Below are positions 892-44,332 of a stretch of 51,833 nt of DNA, piece by piece; positions within the stretch are counted from its first letter, which is position 1, and every line of letters starts with the position of its first letter. The stretch is from positions 1 to 51,833 of IMG/VR virus record IMGVR_UViG_3300013285_000003. The stretch is one strand, 5' to 3'. The notes under the pieces were generated by a model. The model made no database searches and was not told the origin of the DNA. It saw nothing but the letters and a program-made list of their open reading frames with translations. A program made the position numbers and the translations under genes. This DNA is from a virus. Its lineage: Duplodnaviria > Caudoviricetes.

Positions 892-1175
892 TACTGATTC
901 TGACTTGGTATACGGTTGCGGATCTTCTCCACCGCCTGCTGCAGCGCCACCCCCAACACTAGAGGCACATCCACGCCATCCAAATCTTCAATCATCTTCT
1001 CTACCACCATAGCGCAGGCATCTCGCTCAATCTTGACCGCCATCTTAGCGGCCTCAATTGACATGGTCATAATCTCTCTGCGCACGGCCTCAAGTTCGGT
1101 TGTTAATTCCTGCTCGGTGAATAGTTTGTTGCCAGTACCACGAGCCAAAAAACTTTTTTGAAAGTCACTCAACAT
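891..1175 (-). CDS. Hypothetical protein
   Basis: Coupled ORF in the replication operon; ERDACA motif shared with 51174-51428; start placed at MLSDFQK. Confidence 0.65.
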   Translation of the reverse strand: MLSDFQKSFLARGTGNKLFTEQELTTELEAVRREIMTMSIEAAKMAVKIERDACAMVVEKMIEDLDGVDVPLVLGVALQQAVEKIRNRIPSQNQ

Positions 1176-1383
1176 CTTCAGTTCTCCAATCCATGTGTAC
1201 GCCTCGATTACCAAGGCGCCATTGTTTTCTTACATCCTGATCCAGCGTAGACTCAGGATGCTTTTGCTGCCAACGCACCAAGAATGCATGCCCCTCATTG
1301 CGACTCTTAATCCGTAACTTAATCGCATGCCGCACAAGGCATTGGTGCCTAAACTCATCGGAATTGGTATCAATAATCGCCAT
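1165..1383 (-). CDS. Hypothetical protein
   Basis: 72 aa, overlaps both neighbours in the operon. Confidence 0.65.
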   Translation of the reverse strand: MAIIDTNSDEFRHQCLVRHAIKLRIKSRNEGHAFLVRWQQKHPESTLDQDVRKQWRLGNRGVHMDWRTEDVE

Positions 1384-2320
1384 CTACATCAAAGGGTGAA
1401 GGTAAGGCGCCATAGTTCTCGACAAACTGTTGACACTCCTTGTTATACCAAAATGAGTACCAGTCTTCAGCCTCACCATTGCGCTGCTTTTCGCACATCA
1501 AATAACAGTCAGGTGTTGTAGGGTCAACCTGACCGCCTGCAAGTATCTTATGCTCCTTGGCCTTGTTGCGCCAAATCAAAAACACATTATCCACCTGATC
1601 GGCAATTGAACCAGAACCCTTTAAGTCATTCTTGTTGGGCTTGATCTCATCACTAGACTGCTTGCGAATGTGGTGCACTAAGTGCACATGCACGTTATGG
1701 TCTCGAGCTAAAGAAGTCAGCTCATCGACAAAATGCTTTTGCTGGTTGTAGTCATCCTCACCTGACACGCATTTCATCAGCGAGTCAATAAAAATGTGAG
1801 TCACACCAAGCTGCACCGCACTATAGCGAGCCACAGAGATTACCTGCTGCATGTTTACAGTGCCCTGCTGGTCGTATAGCCACAATTTCTGTTCAGAGAA
1901 TGCTTTAAACCGATTCACAAGCTTGGTCATGTACGAGACCTTATTCGAAAATCTCGGCAGCTCTGGGTTCTCGCAAGAGAATTGCCGCAGCATACGAGAC
2001 AACGTGCGTACAGGCTTCATCTCAAACGACATGATGCAGACCTTATGGTCTTGCTTGATCAACCCTAAAGCGATCTGGCCTGTGATCATAGACTTGCCGC
2101 CACCGTTCTGTCCTGCATAAACCGTCACCTCGCCAGCCCGAAAGTTAAACGTCGACTCGGTCTTCATCCATGGCATGGTGCAAATTTGCTTAGGCTTTGG
2201 GTTTGCAACAGACTCAATGATCTCGTCTAGCCAGACATCAGCGGTACGAACCTTCTGCTGAGTGTCGGTCTCTCGCAGATATTCAGAGAAATCAATGTCA
2301 TCAGGCGATAAAATGCGCAT
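1370..2320 (-). CDS. SF4 (DnaB/T7 gp4-like) replicative helicase, no primase domain
   Basis: Walker A GQNGGGKS, SFEM, Walker B IFIDSL, HLVHHIRK, DLKGSGSIADQVDNV, EKQRNG. Confidence 0.9.
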   Translation of the reverse strand: MRILSPDDIDFSEYLRETDTQQKVRTADVWLDEIIESVANPKPKQICTMPWMKTESTFNFRAGEVTVYAGQNGGGKSMITGQIALGLIKQDHKVCIMSFEMKPVRTLSRMLRQFSCENPELPRFSNKVSYMTKLVNRFKAFSEQKLWLYDQQGTVNMQQVISVARYSAVQLGVTHIFIDSLMKCVSGEDDYNQQKHFVDELTSLARDHNVHVHLVHHIRKQSSDEIKPNKNDLKGSGSIADQVDNVFLIWRNKAKEHKILAGGQVDPTTPDCYLMCEKQRNGEAEDWYSFWYNKECQQFVENYGALPSPFDVDGDY

Positions 2321-2633
2321 AGCTGGCTCCTGTGTCGATTACTTCGTCACCGAGTACCGCAATCACTCTTTTTGCGTTCGCAGCTACAAGGGCGCTTAAA
2401 ACGTCTCTGGTGCGTACCTCATCGTTGCCAATGATATGCACTGTCAAACCAACGGCAAATCGCAAATCTAATAGGCGGATATTGTCCTCAGGCGCAATAA
2501 ACACCTCAGGCTTATCAGGACTGAAAACTTCCCAATTAAAATCCCACTTAGGATAGGCACGCAAATAAACCCAGATGGCATTAGGCTTTTTACCTGCTAA
2601 ACGCATTTTTATCAGATTCTCGTGGCCTTTCAT
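2301..2633 (-). CDS. Hypothetical protein between initiator and helicase
   Basis: 110 aa with overlapping start/stop codons; possible loader by position only. Confidence 0.65.
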   Translation of the reverse strand: MKGHENLIKMRLAGKKPNAIWVYLRAYPKWDFNWEVFSPDKPEVFIAPEDNIRLLDLRFAVGLTVHIIGNDEVRTRDVLSALVAANAKRVIAVLGDEVIDTGASYAHFIA

Positions 2634-3271
2634 ATCACCCTCCGAGTAAATGTGGGGCTGCTGCTTTCATCTTCCCAACGACGTTGATTGATGTAGGTCA
2701 TAGGCGCTGGCTCAAAGCCTGTTAACCATTGATCAGAATTCTTTAGGTTTCTAACGCTCATAAGGATTTGGTCTGCAACGTCATCCAAGTTATAACGTTT
2801 CCACTTAGCCTCGACCGCAGCCTTACCTACCTTGCGTTTAGATGCAGGCCATGTTTCCCAGAACTCTGCAAACCTAGTCGCTTGCGACGATATGTCTTTC
2901 TTCTGTATCTGTATCTGTATCTGATTAGGGTTATTTTCGGTAACCGATTCGGTTTTTTTAGGTCTTCCGCCACGCAAGCCAATCTCTCGGTTATTCCTAG
3001 CCTGAGCTTGGTATTTCAAGATTTCTGCTTGCGCACGGCGGTTGACGTAACCCTCATCTGTCTTTTCAAAGAACTCATTCAGCATCTGTTCCACAGGCTC
3101 AACATCTAACCGTACTTTACGAGCTACGGCCTTAATGTCCAAAGACAAAGGCTCTTCTGACATGTAGGATAAATCCAACAGTCGTCGGTAGACTAGGTCT
3201 TCGTACTCGTTCAAATGCGCTGTATGCGTTAAATAATCACCAATGTGGAACTTGTACCAAATCATTTTCAC
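2630..3271 (-). CDS. Replication initiator, YdaU/DUF1376-like
   Basis: WYKFHIGDYLTHTAHL..YRRLLD N-terminus, GGRPKK, low-complexity linker, FAEFWETWP..RKVGK..TYINQRRWEDE C-terminus. Confidence 0.85.
   Translation of the reverse strand: MKMIWYKFHIGDYLTHTAHLNEYEDLVYRRLLDLSYMSEEPLSLDIKAVARKVRLDVEPVEQMLNEFFEKTDEGYVNRRAQAEILKYQAQARNNREIGLRGGRPKKTESVTENNPNQIQIQIQKKDISSQATRFAEFWETWPASKRKVGKAAVEAKWKRYNLDDVADQILMSVRNLKNSDQWLTGFEPAPMTYINQRRWEDESSSPTFTRRVI
2903..2957. repeat. Putative origin iterons inside the initiator gene
   Basis: CTGTAT x3 followed by TTCGGT-AACCGATTCGGTT in the linker-coding part, the usual origin position in lambdoid initiators. Confidence 0.45.
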
Positions 3272-3471
3272 TCTCCAAATAAGTCGCTGCGAAGGTCACT
3301 ACGTTTTACTTTTCTTTTTGTTGCCTTTTCAATCAACACACAGAGTGCGGCACTCGGTGTAACTCGTCCTGCAATGATTAACGAAAACCATGTCCTGCTG
3401 ATACCCAATTGACTTGCCATATCCGCCTTAGAGCCTCGGGGCTGTTTTCTAAAAAACTCTTCTAGTGTCAT
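3268..3471 (-). CDS. Cro/YdaS-like HTH regulator
   Basis: MTLEEFF..GSKADMASQLGISRTWFSLIIAGRVTPS..IEKATKRKVKRSDLRSDLF. Confidence 0.85.
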   Translation of the reverse strand: MTLEEFFRKQPRGSKADMASQLGISRTWFSLIIAGRVTPSAALCVLIEKATKRKVKRSDLRSDLFGE

Positions 3472-3498
3472 AAGTACCCTTTTAGTTAAGTGTGGCAA

Positions 3499-41933: not shown

Positions 41934-42432
41934 GAGTCTTTAACTCAAGGTTCTTAATGACTTCAGCCAAGCGAGTCGTTGAGATATCTGAGGTGGTGAT
42001 CGGCGCCCCTCCCTCTACACCTTCATGCGCTAGTCGCTCGCCGTACTTCTTAGGCCGCAACTTCATGGCAGTCCACTTGCGTGCGTCAATGCGTTGCTTT
42101 TGCCATGCGAGGTATGTCATATCAAGTGTGGTGCGACCCTTCTCATCAGTGTAGGAAGGTGGCTCCTCGTCCGCAATCTTGAGGATCTGGTCGGCATTGG
42201 TATCGGCCTGCTCTTCTCTTGCTCTCGTGTATTTCTCAAGAAAGTCAGGATGGCTAAATAACCATGAGTACACTGTCTGCTGACTAGGGAACTCATCCTC
42301 TCTACAGATTTGTGCGAGTGACTCACCATTACTTAGCCTTGCGCAAATAGTCTCTGCAATGGCGTCGGTGTACTTTGATGGCCTACCCATTGGGTTGCCA
42401 GTAGTTTTGCGTTTAGGTTTTGGCTCAGACAT
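41923..42432 (-). CDS. terS: Terminase small subunit (Sf6/P22-like)
   Basis: GRPSKYT..ICARLSNGESLAQIC..TVYSWL..YTRARE..RIDARKW..PKKYG. Confidence 0.9.
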   Translation of the reverse strand: MSEPKPKRKTTGNPMGRPSKYTDAIAETICARLSNGESLAQICREDEFPSQQTVYSWLFSHPDFLEKYTRAREEQADTNADQILKIADEEPPSYTDEKGRTTLDMTYLAWQKQRIDARKWTAMKLRPKKYGERLAHEGVEGGAPITTSDISTTRLAEVIKNLELKTRAG

Positions 42433-42459
42433 GTTTTCAGCCCTCAGCTATTAGATAAG

Positions 42460-42663
42460 CTATTTTATCCCTAATCTACGATTCCATCTATCGGCAGCAT
42501 TTTGGGGACTGTCTTGCGACCACATTTGACAACCACATTCAAAATTAGGACATAGCACTCGCCAGTGTGTGTTTTTGCGCTGAGGTTCAAGCTTGGGTTT
42601 GTTGTCGCACAGGGGGCACGGCTTTAATCCTGCGGTAATTGCACTTAATTCTGCTGCTTTCAT
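42460..42663 (-). CDS. Lar-like (restriction alleviation) Zn-finger protein
   Basis: LKPCPLC...VLCPNFECG...AADRWNRR; AAGGGA SD before ATG 42663. Confidence 0.7.
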   Translation of the reverse strand: MKAAELSAITAGLKPCPLCDNKPKLEPQRKNTHWRVLCPNFECGCQMWSQDSPQNAADRWNRRLGIK

Positions 42664-42684
42664 GTCATCCCTTATGAACCGTTG

Positions 42685-42899
42685 GTGGTGAATCCTGAAG
42701 TGAGCACAGCCTATACCGTAGAGAATGTCTATGGTTTTCCGCTTATGCTCAAAACGATTGTGTCCGTTGTATGGAGCCACCTTCGTTCGCACTGTCCAGA
42801 CTTCTACGCATTACTGCGCTACCGCCTCGGCTCTAGACTTTCGCCCACCGCCCCCGCTTTAGGCTTGCTCGTGTAACGGGGTTTTGTATTAGCCACCAC
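42685..42899 (-). ncRNA. Putative ~215-nt multibranch structured RNA
   Basis: Closing helix GTGGTGG/TCACCAC around five hairpins, two with GNRA loops; several G-U pairs fix the strand. Confidence 0.6.
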
Positions 42900-42934
42900 T
42901 GACGTGCCGCATGGCGATCGTATTTGGATTCAAT

Positions 42935-43050
42935 AAAAAAAACCGCTTTAATCCATGCCCCGAGGAAAAGCAGTCTTTATGGGACTGACCCCCTTGCGGG
43001 GCGGGACATAGATTAAAACGGTCTTTATTCATCGGTTTTCCAGTCCGACT
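42935..43050 (-). ncRNA. Structured leader/attenuator: 5' hairpin, then a 21-bp stem with two inner hairpins and a U-tract (c4-like architecture)
   Basis: 43002-43022 pairs with 42942-42962 (3 G-U); inner CCCC-GCAA-GGGG and CAGTC/GACTG; U-tract follows. Confidence 0.7.
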
Positions 43051-43060
43051 ACATACTGCT

Positions 43061-43090
43061 ATTTTATCAACATAAATCAACACAGGTCAA
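43061..43090 (-). promoter_or_regulatory. Candidate late promoter TTGACC-18-(TGA)TAAAAT
   Basis: Extended -10 directly upstream of the structured leader and the lar-terS-terL operon. Confidence 0.55.
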
Positions 43091-43332
43091 GCGTCATCCT
43101 CATCTACAGAAAACCATTGCCAAAAAACAACAGGCGTTGACTCTCCGACATATGCGCCCTCGACGTTAAAGTCAATCCACTCATGCGCCTCATCCTCTGT
43201 CATGCCTGTCTGCATAAAGTGCTCAACCATCTTGTCGCCATCATACACGGCTCGCTCGACCTTCTTGCCATCTGGGTGTCAGACATCGCTGATACCCACC
43301 ATAGCGTCGTCTAATCCGTCAAAAAAAATCAT
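43087..43332 (-). pseudogene. Small conserved phage gene interrupted by an in-frame TGA at codon 18
   Basis: GGAGG SD; MIFFDGLDDAMVGISDV*HPDGKKVERAVYDGDKMVE..EAHEWIDFNVEGAYVGESTPVVF. Confidence 0.7.
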
Positions 43333-43349
43333 ATGTCCTCCGAGTTAAG

Positions 43350-43616
43350 TGGTGGCGAGCTACTAGCTGCAGTGCAGGGAGGCGCATACGACCATACCAC
43401 TGATACCACCATCCGCTTTCGCAGACCAACACGGCTAGGCGCTACCTTTTCGCATTGATTTGTGGGTAGCCATGTCATACCCCTTTGGACTCAGATCAAT
43501 GCTGCTCGTCAGCCAATAACGCCTATGCGTGTTAATCCTCGTCTTTCCGAAGCGTCAGCCCCTAAAGCTAGGGCATTTGGTAGCTCGGCTGGTCGTGTGC
43601 CCTTACCTTGCTACCT
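43350..43616 (-). ncRNA. Tandem small structured RNA elements
   Basis: Pseudoknot GGTAGC/GCTACC + GGGCA/TGCCC; CTTCG-GAAAGA-CGAGG hairpin; long nested stem 43424-43537; GAAA hairpin; TGGTGG/CCACCA-closed junction. Confidence 0.55.
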
Positions 43617-43663
43617 TCGGTTGCTAACACCGCAAACCGATTCGGTTACAGCACAAAACCGAT

Positions 43664-43744
43664 TCAGATAAAACATAAGAATACAAAACACACTGCAAGG
43701 CCGACAAACCCTGCGGCCTCAGACCAGAGATTATATTCTCGCAT
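43664..43744 (-). CDS. 26-aa membrane peptide
   Basis: MREYNLWSEAAGFVGLAVCFVFLCFI, 2 nt after the upstream stop. Confidence 0.45.
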   Translation of the reverse strand: MREYNLWSEAAGFVGLAVCFVFLCFI

Positions 43745-43746
43745 GA

Positions 43747-43977
43747 TTAAACCCTCACAGCAATGGCGTGTTCAATGTCTGAAATGATTTGAGCATTCAA
43801 CTTGCGAGTAAGCCAAGGTGCGGCGTTACCACTGCGATCGAGCACCTCAAACTCGCACTCAAAATGGTCTTGTGCATCCCAATCGCTCGGAGCACTACGG
43901 CCTTGGCCTCTGTGCCACTTGGCGCCGATTACGTCAATGATGCAGGGTATGCCTGCGACACGGTGATTAAATTGCAT
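43747..43977 (-). CDS. Early hypothetical protein
   Basis: RVAGIPCII..SDWD..EFEVLDRSG..APWLTRKL. Confidence 0.65.
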   Translation of the reverse strand: MQFNHRVAGIPCIIDVIGAKWHRGQGRSAPSDWDAQDHFECEFEVLDRSGNAAPWLTRKLNAQIISDIEHAIAVRV

Positions 43978-43987
43978 GACAGGTCTT

Positions 43988-44332
43988 CTAGTTGTTGTAT
44001 TGATGGAATTCAGTCTTGATCCAGTCAGCGCACTGTGCAGCGGTGCCAACCAAACCGCATTGAGGGCTAAACAGTGATTTGCAGCGCTCGATGACAATGT
44101 ACTTGTCCTGATAACTAGACCACTGAATCTGGAAGCGTGCATCACGACGAGTAACTGTGTGGGTACCACCAAGGTCTGACAGGTCTAGCTCCTGACCTTC
44201 AGCGAGCGCTTCAATGGCCTCGAGGTCTTTCGCCTCGTAGCCGTTATCCTCAGAAAAAAAATCCAGCGCCACCAGTTTGCTCTCGGCTGGCTCGTAACCG
44301 TCGCTCCAAACTACTAAAAATTGTTTGTTCAT
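43988..44332 (-). CDS. Early hypothetical protein
   Basis: Own promoter and leader, AAGGGA SD, MNKQFLVVW. Confidence 0.7.
   Translation of the reverse strand: MNKQFLVVWSDGYEPAESKLVALDFFSEDNGYEAKDLEAIEALAEGQELDLSDLGGTHTVTRRDARFQIQWSSYQDKYIVIERCKSLFSPQCGLVGTAAQCADWIKTEFHQYNN

Follow-up and report, generated by a model that had tools for sequence, protein, structure and literature searches.

A conserved pseudoknotted RNA at the early/late junction of uncultured freshwater phages

The stretch of DNA analysed here, referred to as the window, comprises the 51,833 nucleotides of the virus record IMGVR_UViG_3300013285_000003 (Caudoviricetes), a complete 51.8-kb record with terminal repeats, of which the minus strand carries nearly all genes. 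Assignments from PHROG and Pfam reveal a lambdoid gene order, consisting of a repressor-like helix-turn-helix (HTH) gene, replication genes, a RuvC-like resolvase gene, about 8 kb of small early genes spanning the record ends and, from 42663 downwards, a lar-like gene, an Sf6-type terS, terL and structural genes, which together form a one-strand late operon of about 37 kb. Exactly at the early/late junction lies the subject of this article, a conserved pseudoknotted RNA of about 200-250 nt. A first-pass annotation had placed a structured RNA of five arms (42899-42685, minus strand) at the head of the late operon, ending about 20 nt before the lar start; the position is confirmed, with a distance of 21 nt to the lar ATG. 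The genes that frame the junction are the following.

3268-3498: HTH repressor-like gene (PHROG/Pfam), with replication initiation and helicase genes next, then the resolvase
430-891: RuvC-like resolvase gene (PHROG/Pfam)
42460..42663, minus strand: lar-like first late gene, 67 aa (Pfam Lar_restr_allev, 32.1 bits against a cut-off of 28.6), start codon ATG at 42663-42661
42432-41923, minus strand: terS (Pfam Sf6_terminase)
41933-40524, minus strand: terL (Pfam Terminase_6N)

Relatives of the element were collected from viral metagenome records. Searches with blastn found no match in 50,697 GenBank phage records for the window leader or for a type-B or a type-A RNA, and none in E. coli genomes for the window leader. 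Among loci carrying relatives of TerS in IMG/VR (116 found, 80 kept), nhmmer aligned the RNA region in 11, with TerS identities of 45-97%, and the upstream leader only in four further ones. A search pattern of 21 bases taken from two conserved stretches matched at least 119 IMG/VR viral stretches; the matches listed include 99 distinct extracts, and the resulting alignment, A1, holds 100 RNAs in 93 distinct rows. The same pattern gave 11 matches in 185,579 species genomes, none of them at an Rfam family, of which 10 were judged by inspection to be chance occurrences in unrelated sequence and the sole true member is a contig of a Dechloromonas sp. metagenome-assembled genome. The same or a related sequence is present on contigs from sediment, freshwater and lake metagenomes, and the hosts of the element are a group of uncultured freshwater phages. 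A covariance model of 227 positions built from the alignment, R1, finds one match per locus in 100 of 100 pattern-derived loci, always in the sense of the genes, and a single match in the window (42676-42924, 124.7 bits, E 5e-36); applied to the window and the 80 TerS loci, it gave 12 matches, none of them a more distant member.

The minus strand of the element folds as first drawn, with a closing helix around five arms (minimum free energy (MFE) -69.6 kcal/mol). The signal in the single sequence is weak (z = -2.18, with 4 of 200 minus-strand shuffles folding equally well), and the plus-strand fold of 42685-42899 has z = -1.49. It is the alignment that establishes the structure. RNAalifold on A1 returned three helices, namely P0, P2 and a long-range helix, PK1, which makes a pseudoknot with the CGG/CCG stem. 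When the five-arm model (60 pairs) is laid on A1, 73.1% of cells are paired and the covariation is 0.103, against 0.04-0.07 in controls with slid partners, so that the model is partly upheld. A revised model of 43 pairs, composed of P0, a small inner helix, P2, P3, PK1, a weak hairpin, P5, P6 and a UGGU:ACCA pairing, has 91.7% of cells paired against 34-45% with partners slid by 1-3 columns, and a covariation of 0.274 against about 0.06 when slid; its five measures all stay out of reach of 500 column shuffles, and the slid controls weigh more than the shuffles because related sequences can beat shuffles. In the window, the revised domain and its parts are placed as follows.

42679..42918, minus strand: whole conserved RNA domain with revised limits (alignment, covariation, R1 match)
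42892..42915, minus strand: P0 hairpin, stem GCC(A)/(T)GGC, loop with conserved TGCGGYACGTCRGTGG, missed by the first-pass annotation
42852..42881, minus strand: P2 hairpin CCCCGT/GCGGGG with conserved loop TTACACGAGCAAGCCTAAA, formerly arm 1
42828..42850, minus strand: P3 stem CGG/CCG enclosing TGGGCGAAAGTCTAGAG (covariation)
42794..42838, minus strand: PK1, GTCTAGA (42838-42832, in the P3 loop) with TCTGGAC (42800-42794)
42806..42819, minus strand: insertion hairpin of the window type, GCGCA-GTAA-TGCGT, with letters in 5 of 93 rows
42753..42787, minus strand: arm 4, AACGA...TCGTT, a variable lineage-specific stem replaced in relatives mostly by gaps or other stems
42702..42750, minus strand: P5 GAGCATA/TGTGCTC enclosing a conserved internal loop and P6 (42734-42716), formerly arm 5

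The limits first proposed have moved, as the true unit starts about 20 nt further upstream, with P0, and ends a few nucleotides further downstream. All four pairs of P0 (columns 9-12:32-35) covary, with up to four pair types each (for example CG:59 UA:24 UG:5 AU:4 GC:1, and CG:65 AU:11 GC:11 UA:6), and the small inner helix lies at columns 15-17:22-24. P2 (columns 47-52:71-76), which corresponds to the first arm, is 99.6% paired with five of its six pairs covarying (UA:52 CG:35). P3 (columns 78-80:98-100) is 100% paired, with CG:58 GC:27 AU:5 and other types, and PK1 (columns 90-96:138-144) is 98.9% paired with three covarying pairs (UA:35 AU:12 CG:12; CG:84 GC:6; CG:80 UA:10). The weak hairpin occupies columns 147-150:162-165. 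Covariation likewise supports P5 (columns 196-201:235-240) and P6 (columns 210-217:222-228), with AU:50/GC:13 and CG:45/UA:15, and hence the fifth arm with its inner hairpin.

The remaining parts of the five-arm drawing fared less well. In the second arm, the outer CGG/CCG stem is P3, but the inner helix TGGGC/GTCTA fails, its pair 85-90 being broken in 60 of the 62 rows with letters; the C-to-G change at column 91 is compensated at column 143 within PK1 (GC:6), but breaks the earlier pair 84-91. The stem AGGC/GTCT of the third arm is contradicted by pairs 103-138 and 104-137, broken in 91 of 93 rows, and both its tip, GCGCA-GTAA-TGCGT, and the fourth arm are insertions rather than general features, with gaps in 88 of 93 rows. 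As to the closing helix, the 3' strand of P0 overlaps it and its outer pairs are not kept (27-271 is broken in 59 of 93 rows and 32-266 in 35 of 93), while UGGU:ACCA (columns 28-31:267-270) is kept and never varies.

That selection acts at the RNA level on the transcribed strand, as had been proposed, is borne out by the alignment: G-U pairs account for 412 of 3732 paired cells (11%), and reading the complement strand lowers pairing from 91.7% to 82.9%, and therefore the structure belongs to the gene-sense transcript. About 30 unpaired bases are invariant or nearly so beyond the 21 columns fixed by the search pattern; a multi-helix core with invariant unpaired nucleotides and covariation, as seen in riboswitch-type RNAs, is thus present, with those 21 columns set by the pattern. 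Mutual-information and complement scans for loop complementarity of the packaging RNA (pRNA) type gave only the helices listed above.

The region is not protein-coding in any conserved way. The frame over the conserved 3' strand of P5 differs between phages, and open reading frames (ORFs) beginning at (A/G/C)TGGCTCC run for 11-101 codons, with the conserved NTG being ATG in 70, CTG in 11 and GTG in 4 of 85; a leader peptide starting there is ruled out by the variable frame, ORF length and start codon. In the window, a 110-aa ORF with a GTG start (42460-42792, minus strand) is the lar frame running upstream through the 3' half of the RNA by chance, and its frame is not conserved in relatives. 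The lack of an assignable family noted at the outset also holds, since there is no match in Rfam 15, including c4 and Proteo-phage-1: at gathering scores there are no matches in the whole window, at E up to 10 there are three chance-level matches in 42300-43400, all in the upstream leader and none inside 42685-42899, and at E up to 1 there are none in four related loci (26 kb). No tRNA or transfer-messenger RNA was found in the window.

Several other identities were considered and set aside. The P0 loop and leader hairpin 1 (described below) are each single-copy in the window, which excludes a repeated promoter for a phage polymerase. Words resembling RNase P RNA motifs occur in the wrong order and have no Rfam match, and Rfam likewise gives no match for a T-box with UGGU/ACCA or for the hairpin ribozyme words AGAAGUC and CCAGAG, for which the strand needed is the variable word. 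Template and variable repeats of a diversity-generating retroelement are excluded by differences that are not adenine-specific, and target-site duplication of an inserted element by the finding that the supposed element contains core parts common to all members.

The 3' part of the RNA contains two look-alike segments, D1 and D2, with the forms GUGC...ACAU-GGCUCC-(G)-Y1 and GUGC...ACAU-(U)CACC-(A)-Y2, respectively.

42764..42792, minus strand: D1, GTGC (42792-42789)...GGCTCC (42778-42773)...Y1 CAACGG (42769-42764)
42679..42707, minus strand: D2, GTGC (42707-42704)...CACCA (42690-42686)...Y2 CAACGG (42684-42679)

A single GCAC (columns 196-199) has two covarying partners, the GUGC at 237-240 and the GUGC at 147-150, the latter pairing being formed in 99.2% of cells (UA:50/CG:13). 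The ACCA of D2 can pair with TGGT 42898-42895 of the P0 loop, and in the window arm 4 closes the GGCTCC-Y1 loop. The word Y is hypervariable between phages, with 42 distinct words, yet it is the same at both places within a phage: at least 6 nt are common to Y1 and Y2 in 87 of 90 RNAs (median 8, maximum 11), with the offset identical in 61 and shifted by one base in 29. Sharing of at least 8 nt occurs in 46 of 90 own pairs, as against 6 of 2377 control pairs formed across phages. The two copies form direct repeats separated by 60-88 bp.

Upstream of the RNA, a promoter and a leader complete a cassette, the parts of which in the window are listed here.

43061..43090, minus strand: sigma-70-like promoter TTGACC, 18 nt, TAAAAT with TG (10 of 12 matches), overlapping the stop codon of the upstream ORF
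43032..43048, minus strand: leader hairpin 1, TCGG-ACTGGAAAA-CCGA, single copy in the window
42942..43022, minus strand: long branched leader hairpin with an outer stem of about 21 bp, enclosing CCCC-GCAA-GGGG and CAGTC...GACTG hairpins
42935..42942, minus strand: U-run of 8 T directly after the long hairpin, an intrinsic-terminator-like end of the leader

Comparison of 97 distinct relatives with 240 nt of upstream sequence demonstrated that in 89 a T-run following a conserved branched hairpin precedes the RNA by 4-28 nt, the other eight, without a U-run, comprising the L110 group and a few more loci. In 46 of the 97, a promoter-like site is present 137-231 nt upstream, often as TTGACA-16-TATAAT or TATACT, and perfect or near-perfect forms are frequent at -137 to -200; the chance rate, estimated from shuffles in the window search, is about 0.1 per 240 nt of one strand. 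Compensatory changes occur in 19 of 24 predicted pairs of the leader hairpins in a 22-sequence alignment, and leader hairpin 1, directly after the promoter, keeps the loop (C/G)UGGAAA in the 22 compared leaders (A3 columns 55-73). It occupies the position expected for a nut/boxB-type signal. A strong promoter and a short leader ending in a terminator-like signal before late genes, as in lambda-type late leaders, are therefore present. The unit of promoter, leader, terminator and RNA moves as a block, while the gene upstream varies by locus: in L086 and L098 it follows terS-terL and in L160 a TerS-like gene, therefore the "late promoter" is not always ahead of the terminase genes. In these three loci the unit is followed by a small ORF and by one of about 1100 aa.

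The absence of a recognisable Q, noted at the outset, was also confirmed: no Q-like or antiterminator family was found among the 27 early ORFs scanned against PHROGs, 12 of which have no family at all and may include an unrecognised N- or Q-like protein of small size. Relatives show no conservation of the gene that precedes the cassette. In the window, that gene (43087-43344, minus strand), just upstream of the late promoter, has a C-terminal match to phrog_13182 and is split over two frames into a 21-aa and then a 63-aa piece, whereas the near-identical relative L004 has one intact ORF of 81 aa; the split is a frameshift or an assembly error. Between it and a 141-aa ORF (43747-44172), about 470 nt (~43280-43745, minus strand) hold only short stop-to-stop frames, at most 70 aa on either strand, with no family match, and this stretch may be another non-coding feature. 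In the related phages L008 and L010-12, the gene, promoter, leader hairpins and U-run upstream are shared with the window, but before terS there is a different ORF-free stretch of about 260-280 nt (L008:2505-2765 and L010:1990-2270), which has an MFE z of -1.11 and no Rfam match, is not matched by R1 and holds a few look-alike words (ACACGACAGCAA, GCGTGGTAGG and TATCACCC); it may be a distant relative or an analogous leader.

Downstream of the RNA, the distance from CACC to the start of the first ORF (45 aa or longer) is at most 30 nt in 44 of 86 loci and at most 45 nt in 58. Only 15 of the 86 first genes have a Pfam family, in about 10 families (TerS 4, HNH 3, Lar 2, and HTH, ERF, PAPS reductase, methylase, HSDR_N and TerL one each), the other 71 having none; this diversity fits operon-level rather than gene-specific control, and the association with a single pathway that is typical of riboswitches was not found. 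In L196, the large terminase subunit gene (967-3276) carries Hint/intein-type domains (Pfam Intein_splicing, Vint).

The interpretation that we favour, tentatively, regards the element as a cis-acting leader RNA of the late unit, in which a sensor-like core together with a D1/D2 platform would set the output of the first late gene and of the operon. The comparisons show the RNA itself, its structure, the cassette, the two partners of GCAC and the identity of Y1 and Y2, whereas action in cis, the binding of a partner and any gating of expression are what we infer. The proposed order of events follows the cassette, from a near-consensus sigma-70 promoter through the small hairpin, the long branched hairpin with its U-run and the RNA to the first late gene, such that the RNA would be made solely on transcripts escaping the leader terminator. 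Read-through at that terminator is more simply ascribed to a factor acting on the promoter-proximal hairpin or the promoter, possibly an unrecognised N- or Q-like protein. The compact pseudoknotted core (P0, P2, P3/PK1, P5/P6) would bind a conserved partner, as its invariant unpaired bases suggest, candidates being a small ligand and host machinery, for instance the ribosome or RNA polymerase. D1 and D2, both bearing the phage-specific word of 6-11 nt, would compete for the one GCAC, and the state of the core would decide which segment is docked; as the D2 copy of the word lies just before the first gene start, docking could set translation of that gene and, via coupling and polarity, the output of the 37-kb operon. 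A bolder and rather doubtful form of this proposal is a Q-less late switch, in which a pseudoknotted sensor core is combined with mimicry, the decoy D1/Y1 being kept identical to D2/Y2 at the first late gene, and in which the conserved signal read by the core would be a metabolite or the state of the ribosome or RNA polymerase.

Several observations weigh against the cis-acting leader. On the side of the core, 21 columns of A1 are invariant by construction, the family having been collected with an exact pattern, and L048, a member found by another route, varies in the P2 loop; the diverse downstream genes give no clue to a ligand. Regarding the platform, a subgroup of 10 of 100 rows (the L087 group) lacks D1, D2 and Y yet keeps the core. 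P5 is favoured over the alternative GCAC pairing by a median of 3.1 kcal/mol, by more than 2 in 41 of 62 cases and within 2 in 20, so that the alternative may be no more than an intermediate of folding; in constrained folds, the two pairings leave the 20 nt that follow CACC almost equally accessible (unpaired 0.52 versus 0.47). Closeness of the start codon is expected anyway in a compact phage genome, and the start lies more than 45 nt from CACC in 28 of 86 loci. The only contig of metatranscriptome run X20 covers 151 nt over lar (42464-42611) and is uninformative on the RNA.

The purpose of the repeated word is equally relevant here, as no consistent, general cis partner complementary to Y was found in the RNA, the duplex energies being weak and scattered. 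Partners in the upstream 260 nt (-7.55 versus -6.9) and the downstream 150 nt (-5.6 versus -4.94) barely beat shuffled words, the reverse complement of the word is absent from the loci and from two whole records (38 and 34 kb), and a helix between the 5' flank and the 3' tail is no stronger in own pairs than in mismatched ones (-12.57 versus -12.5 kcal/mol). Certain lineages do have partners, none of them general: AAGCA-type words are complemented by UGCUUU beside P5, CGGCAG by CUGUCG and AAGGGG by a C-run ahead of P0. The general cause of Y1 = Y2 may therefore be competition between D1 and D2 for lineage-specific partners. The loci L110, L115, L128, L167, L185 and L106, which lack the U-run, have a C-rich run, such as CCTCCCCCCT, about 7-10 nt before P0; they form a sub-lineage in which this run is complementary to the phage's own Y word AAGGGGAAA.

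Among other explanations, a stable phage non-coding RNA (ncRNA) acting in trans, released from the late transcript as a packaging or assembly scaffold or as an anti-defence decoy, with the cassette as its expression unit, is rather unlikely. Its size, pseudoknots and many invariant unpaired bases are those of ribonucleoprotein or large ncRNAs, its place is within the packaging module, ahead of terS or behind terL, and the subgroup without D1 and D2 has a purine-rich spacer of about 100 nt before the next gene. On the other hand, in most loci such an RNA has no terminator of its own behind it, the next start codon being within 45 nt in 58 of 86, no complementary hypervariable loop pair of the phi29 pRNA type was found, and accumulation is not supported by the X20 contig, which covers lar alone.

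Less likely again is processive antitermination further downstream or against Rho, in the manner of HK022 put or Bacillus EAR, whereby the nascent RNA would bind its own RNA polymerase and resist pausing, Rho and terminators over a long operon. HK022 put RNAs are cis-acting antiterminators, and this precedent underlay the earlier suggestion of a put-like role. A further case is the conjugative element Tn916, for which a cis-acting antiterminator RNA is described (PMC11658703). Such a role would suit the position at the head of a 37-kb one-strand operon, the missing Q-like gene and conserved upstream gene, and an RNA that is highly conserved though neighbouring proteins are not, TerS being just 45-60% identical, as expected for a host RNA polymerase partner. 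A put-like element must, however, precede its terminator, and the single strong terminator-like signal lies ahead of this RNA, a position that speaks against such a role at the leader terminator; terminator-like sites are not in excess in the 39 kb downstream (15 versus 18.6+/-5.0 and 12 versus 18.9+/-4.0 in shuffles). The leader moreover carries a small hairpin at the site that one would expect a nut- or put-type signal to occupy, and antitermination would leave both the identity of Y1 and Y2 and the existence of two GUGC partners unexplained.

A self-cleaving or processing ribozyme, cutting an early/late read-through transcript and setting the 5' end of the late mRNA, is improbable: the pseudoknotted core has many invariant bases and small ribozymes are common in phage genomes, but no Rfam 15 ribozyme matches even at E up to 10 or 1, and the RNA is larger than known small self-cleavers. 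Very improbable is a DNA-level site, in which the Y copies would be direct-repeat protein sites (for TerS at pac or for a late regulator) and RNA structure would be secondary, for although the repeats lie beside packaging genes and the word changes together with the 3' domain and downstream gene block, the helices covary, G-U pairs are used on the sense strand only, up- and downstream proteins differ between loci with similar cores, and the repeat-less subgroup keeps the core. The remaining weight falls to something not thought of.

Late-gene timing is largely unknown in tailed phages outside the lambdoid, T4 and T7 groups, and a large conserved RNA at the early/late control point of at least 119 stretches of uncultured viral DNA bears on this question. 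Should the RNA prove to sense a signal, or to act on the machinery of transcription or translation, it would represent a new class of regulatory RNA and a control module that is compact and portable; as a stable ncRNA only, it would still be a well-supported addition to the short list of large ornate RNAs. The rule that the internal word equals the word after the RNA is a directly testable puzzle.

Among known systems, the late cassette of lambda (PR', the "6S" leader, tR' and Q) is similar in its strong sigma-70 promoter, structured leader, hairpin with U-run and long one-strand operon, and the lambda gene order is resembled in the window by a repressor-like HTH gene, replication genes, a RuvC-like resolvase gene and late genes. 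It differs in that a Q-like protein and a conserved upstream gene are not recognised here and in that a conserved pseudoknotted RNA of 200-250 nt stands between terminator and first gene; we know of no lambda counterpart of such an RNA. The leaders of HK022 put, Bacillus EAR and Tn916 or other integrative and conjugative elements share a conserved sense-strand structured leader RNA on a long mobile-element operon for which no dedicated protein was found, as here. They lie upstream of the terminators that they suppress, whereas this RNA stands behind the leader terminator; it has roughly three times the size of put, the comparison being one of position and size.

The phi29 pRNA is also a phage RNA of about 170-240 nt encoded near packaging functions. 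Its rings depend on complementary, covarying loop pairs, whereas the hypervariable words here are identical rather than complementary, with no complement in the loci or in two whole records. The raiA, ROOL, GOLLD and OLE RNAs are comparable in their discovery by comparative analysis, mostly in uncultured sequence, in their ornate structure and in a function that is not known, and no Rfam 15 model matches this RNA. A mining study of IMG/VR (PMC10690425) reports 8495 candidate RNAs with lengths of 29-151 nt, of which 14 precede a putative large terminase, and fragments of this RNA may be listed undescribed among its DNAVirus_N candidates, the longest model of which is 151 nt. Terminase and late operons are not mentioned in the accessible part of a 2026 coevolutionary-mining preprint (10.64898/2026.09.22.753630). 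A full-text literature search, which did not extend to a comparison with the DNAVirus_N candidates of PMC10690425, found in the texts it reached no description of such an element.

Riboswitch and attenuator leaders offer a further comparison, sharing with this RNA a multi-helix pseudoknotted core with invariant unpaired bases, a position in the 5' untranslated region and a strand, here GCAC, with two covarying partners. They differ in that no Rfam riboswitch matches here, no downstream pathway is common and the RNA follows the terminator. To our knowledge, identity-type covariation, such as that of Y1 and Y2 without a common complementary strand, is not a described feature of either group, and if the Q-less switch were true, this "identity covariation" would be a mechanism undescribed for riboswitches or attenuators. 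Because no Rfam 15 match and no literature description were found, we rate the element as a new RNA family of structured phage leader RNA, the unusual trait of which is its identity-type covariation.

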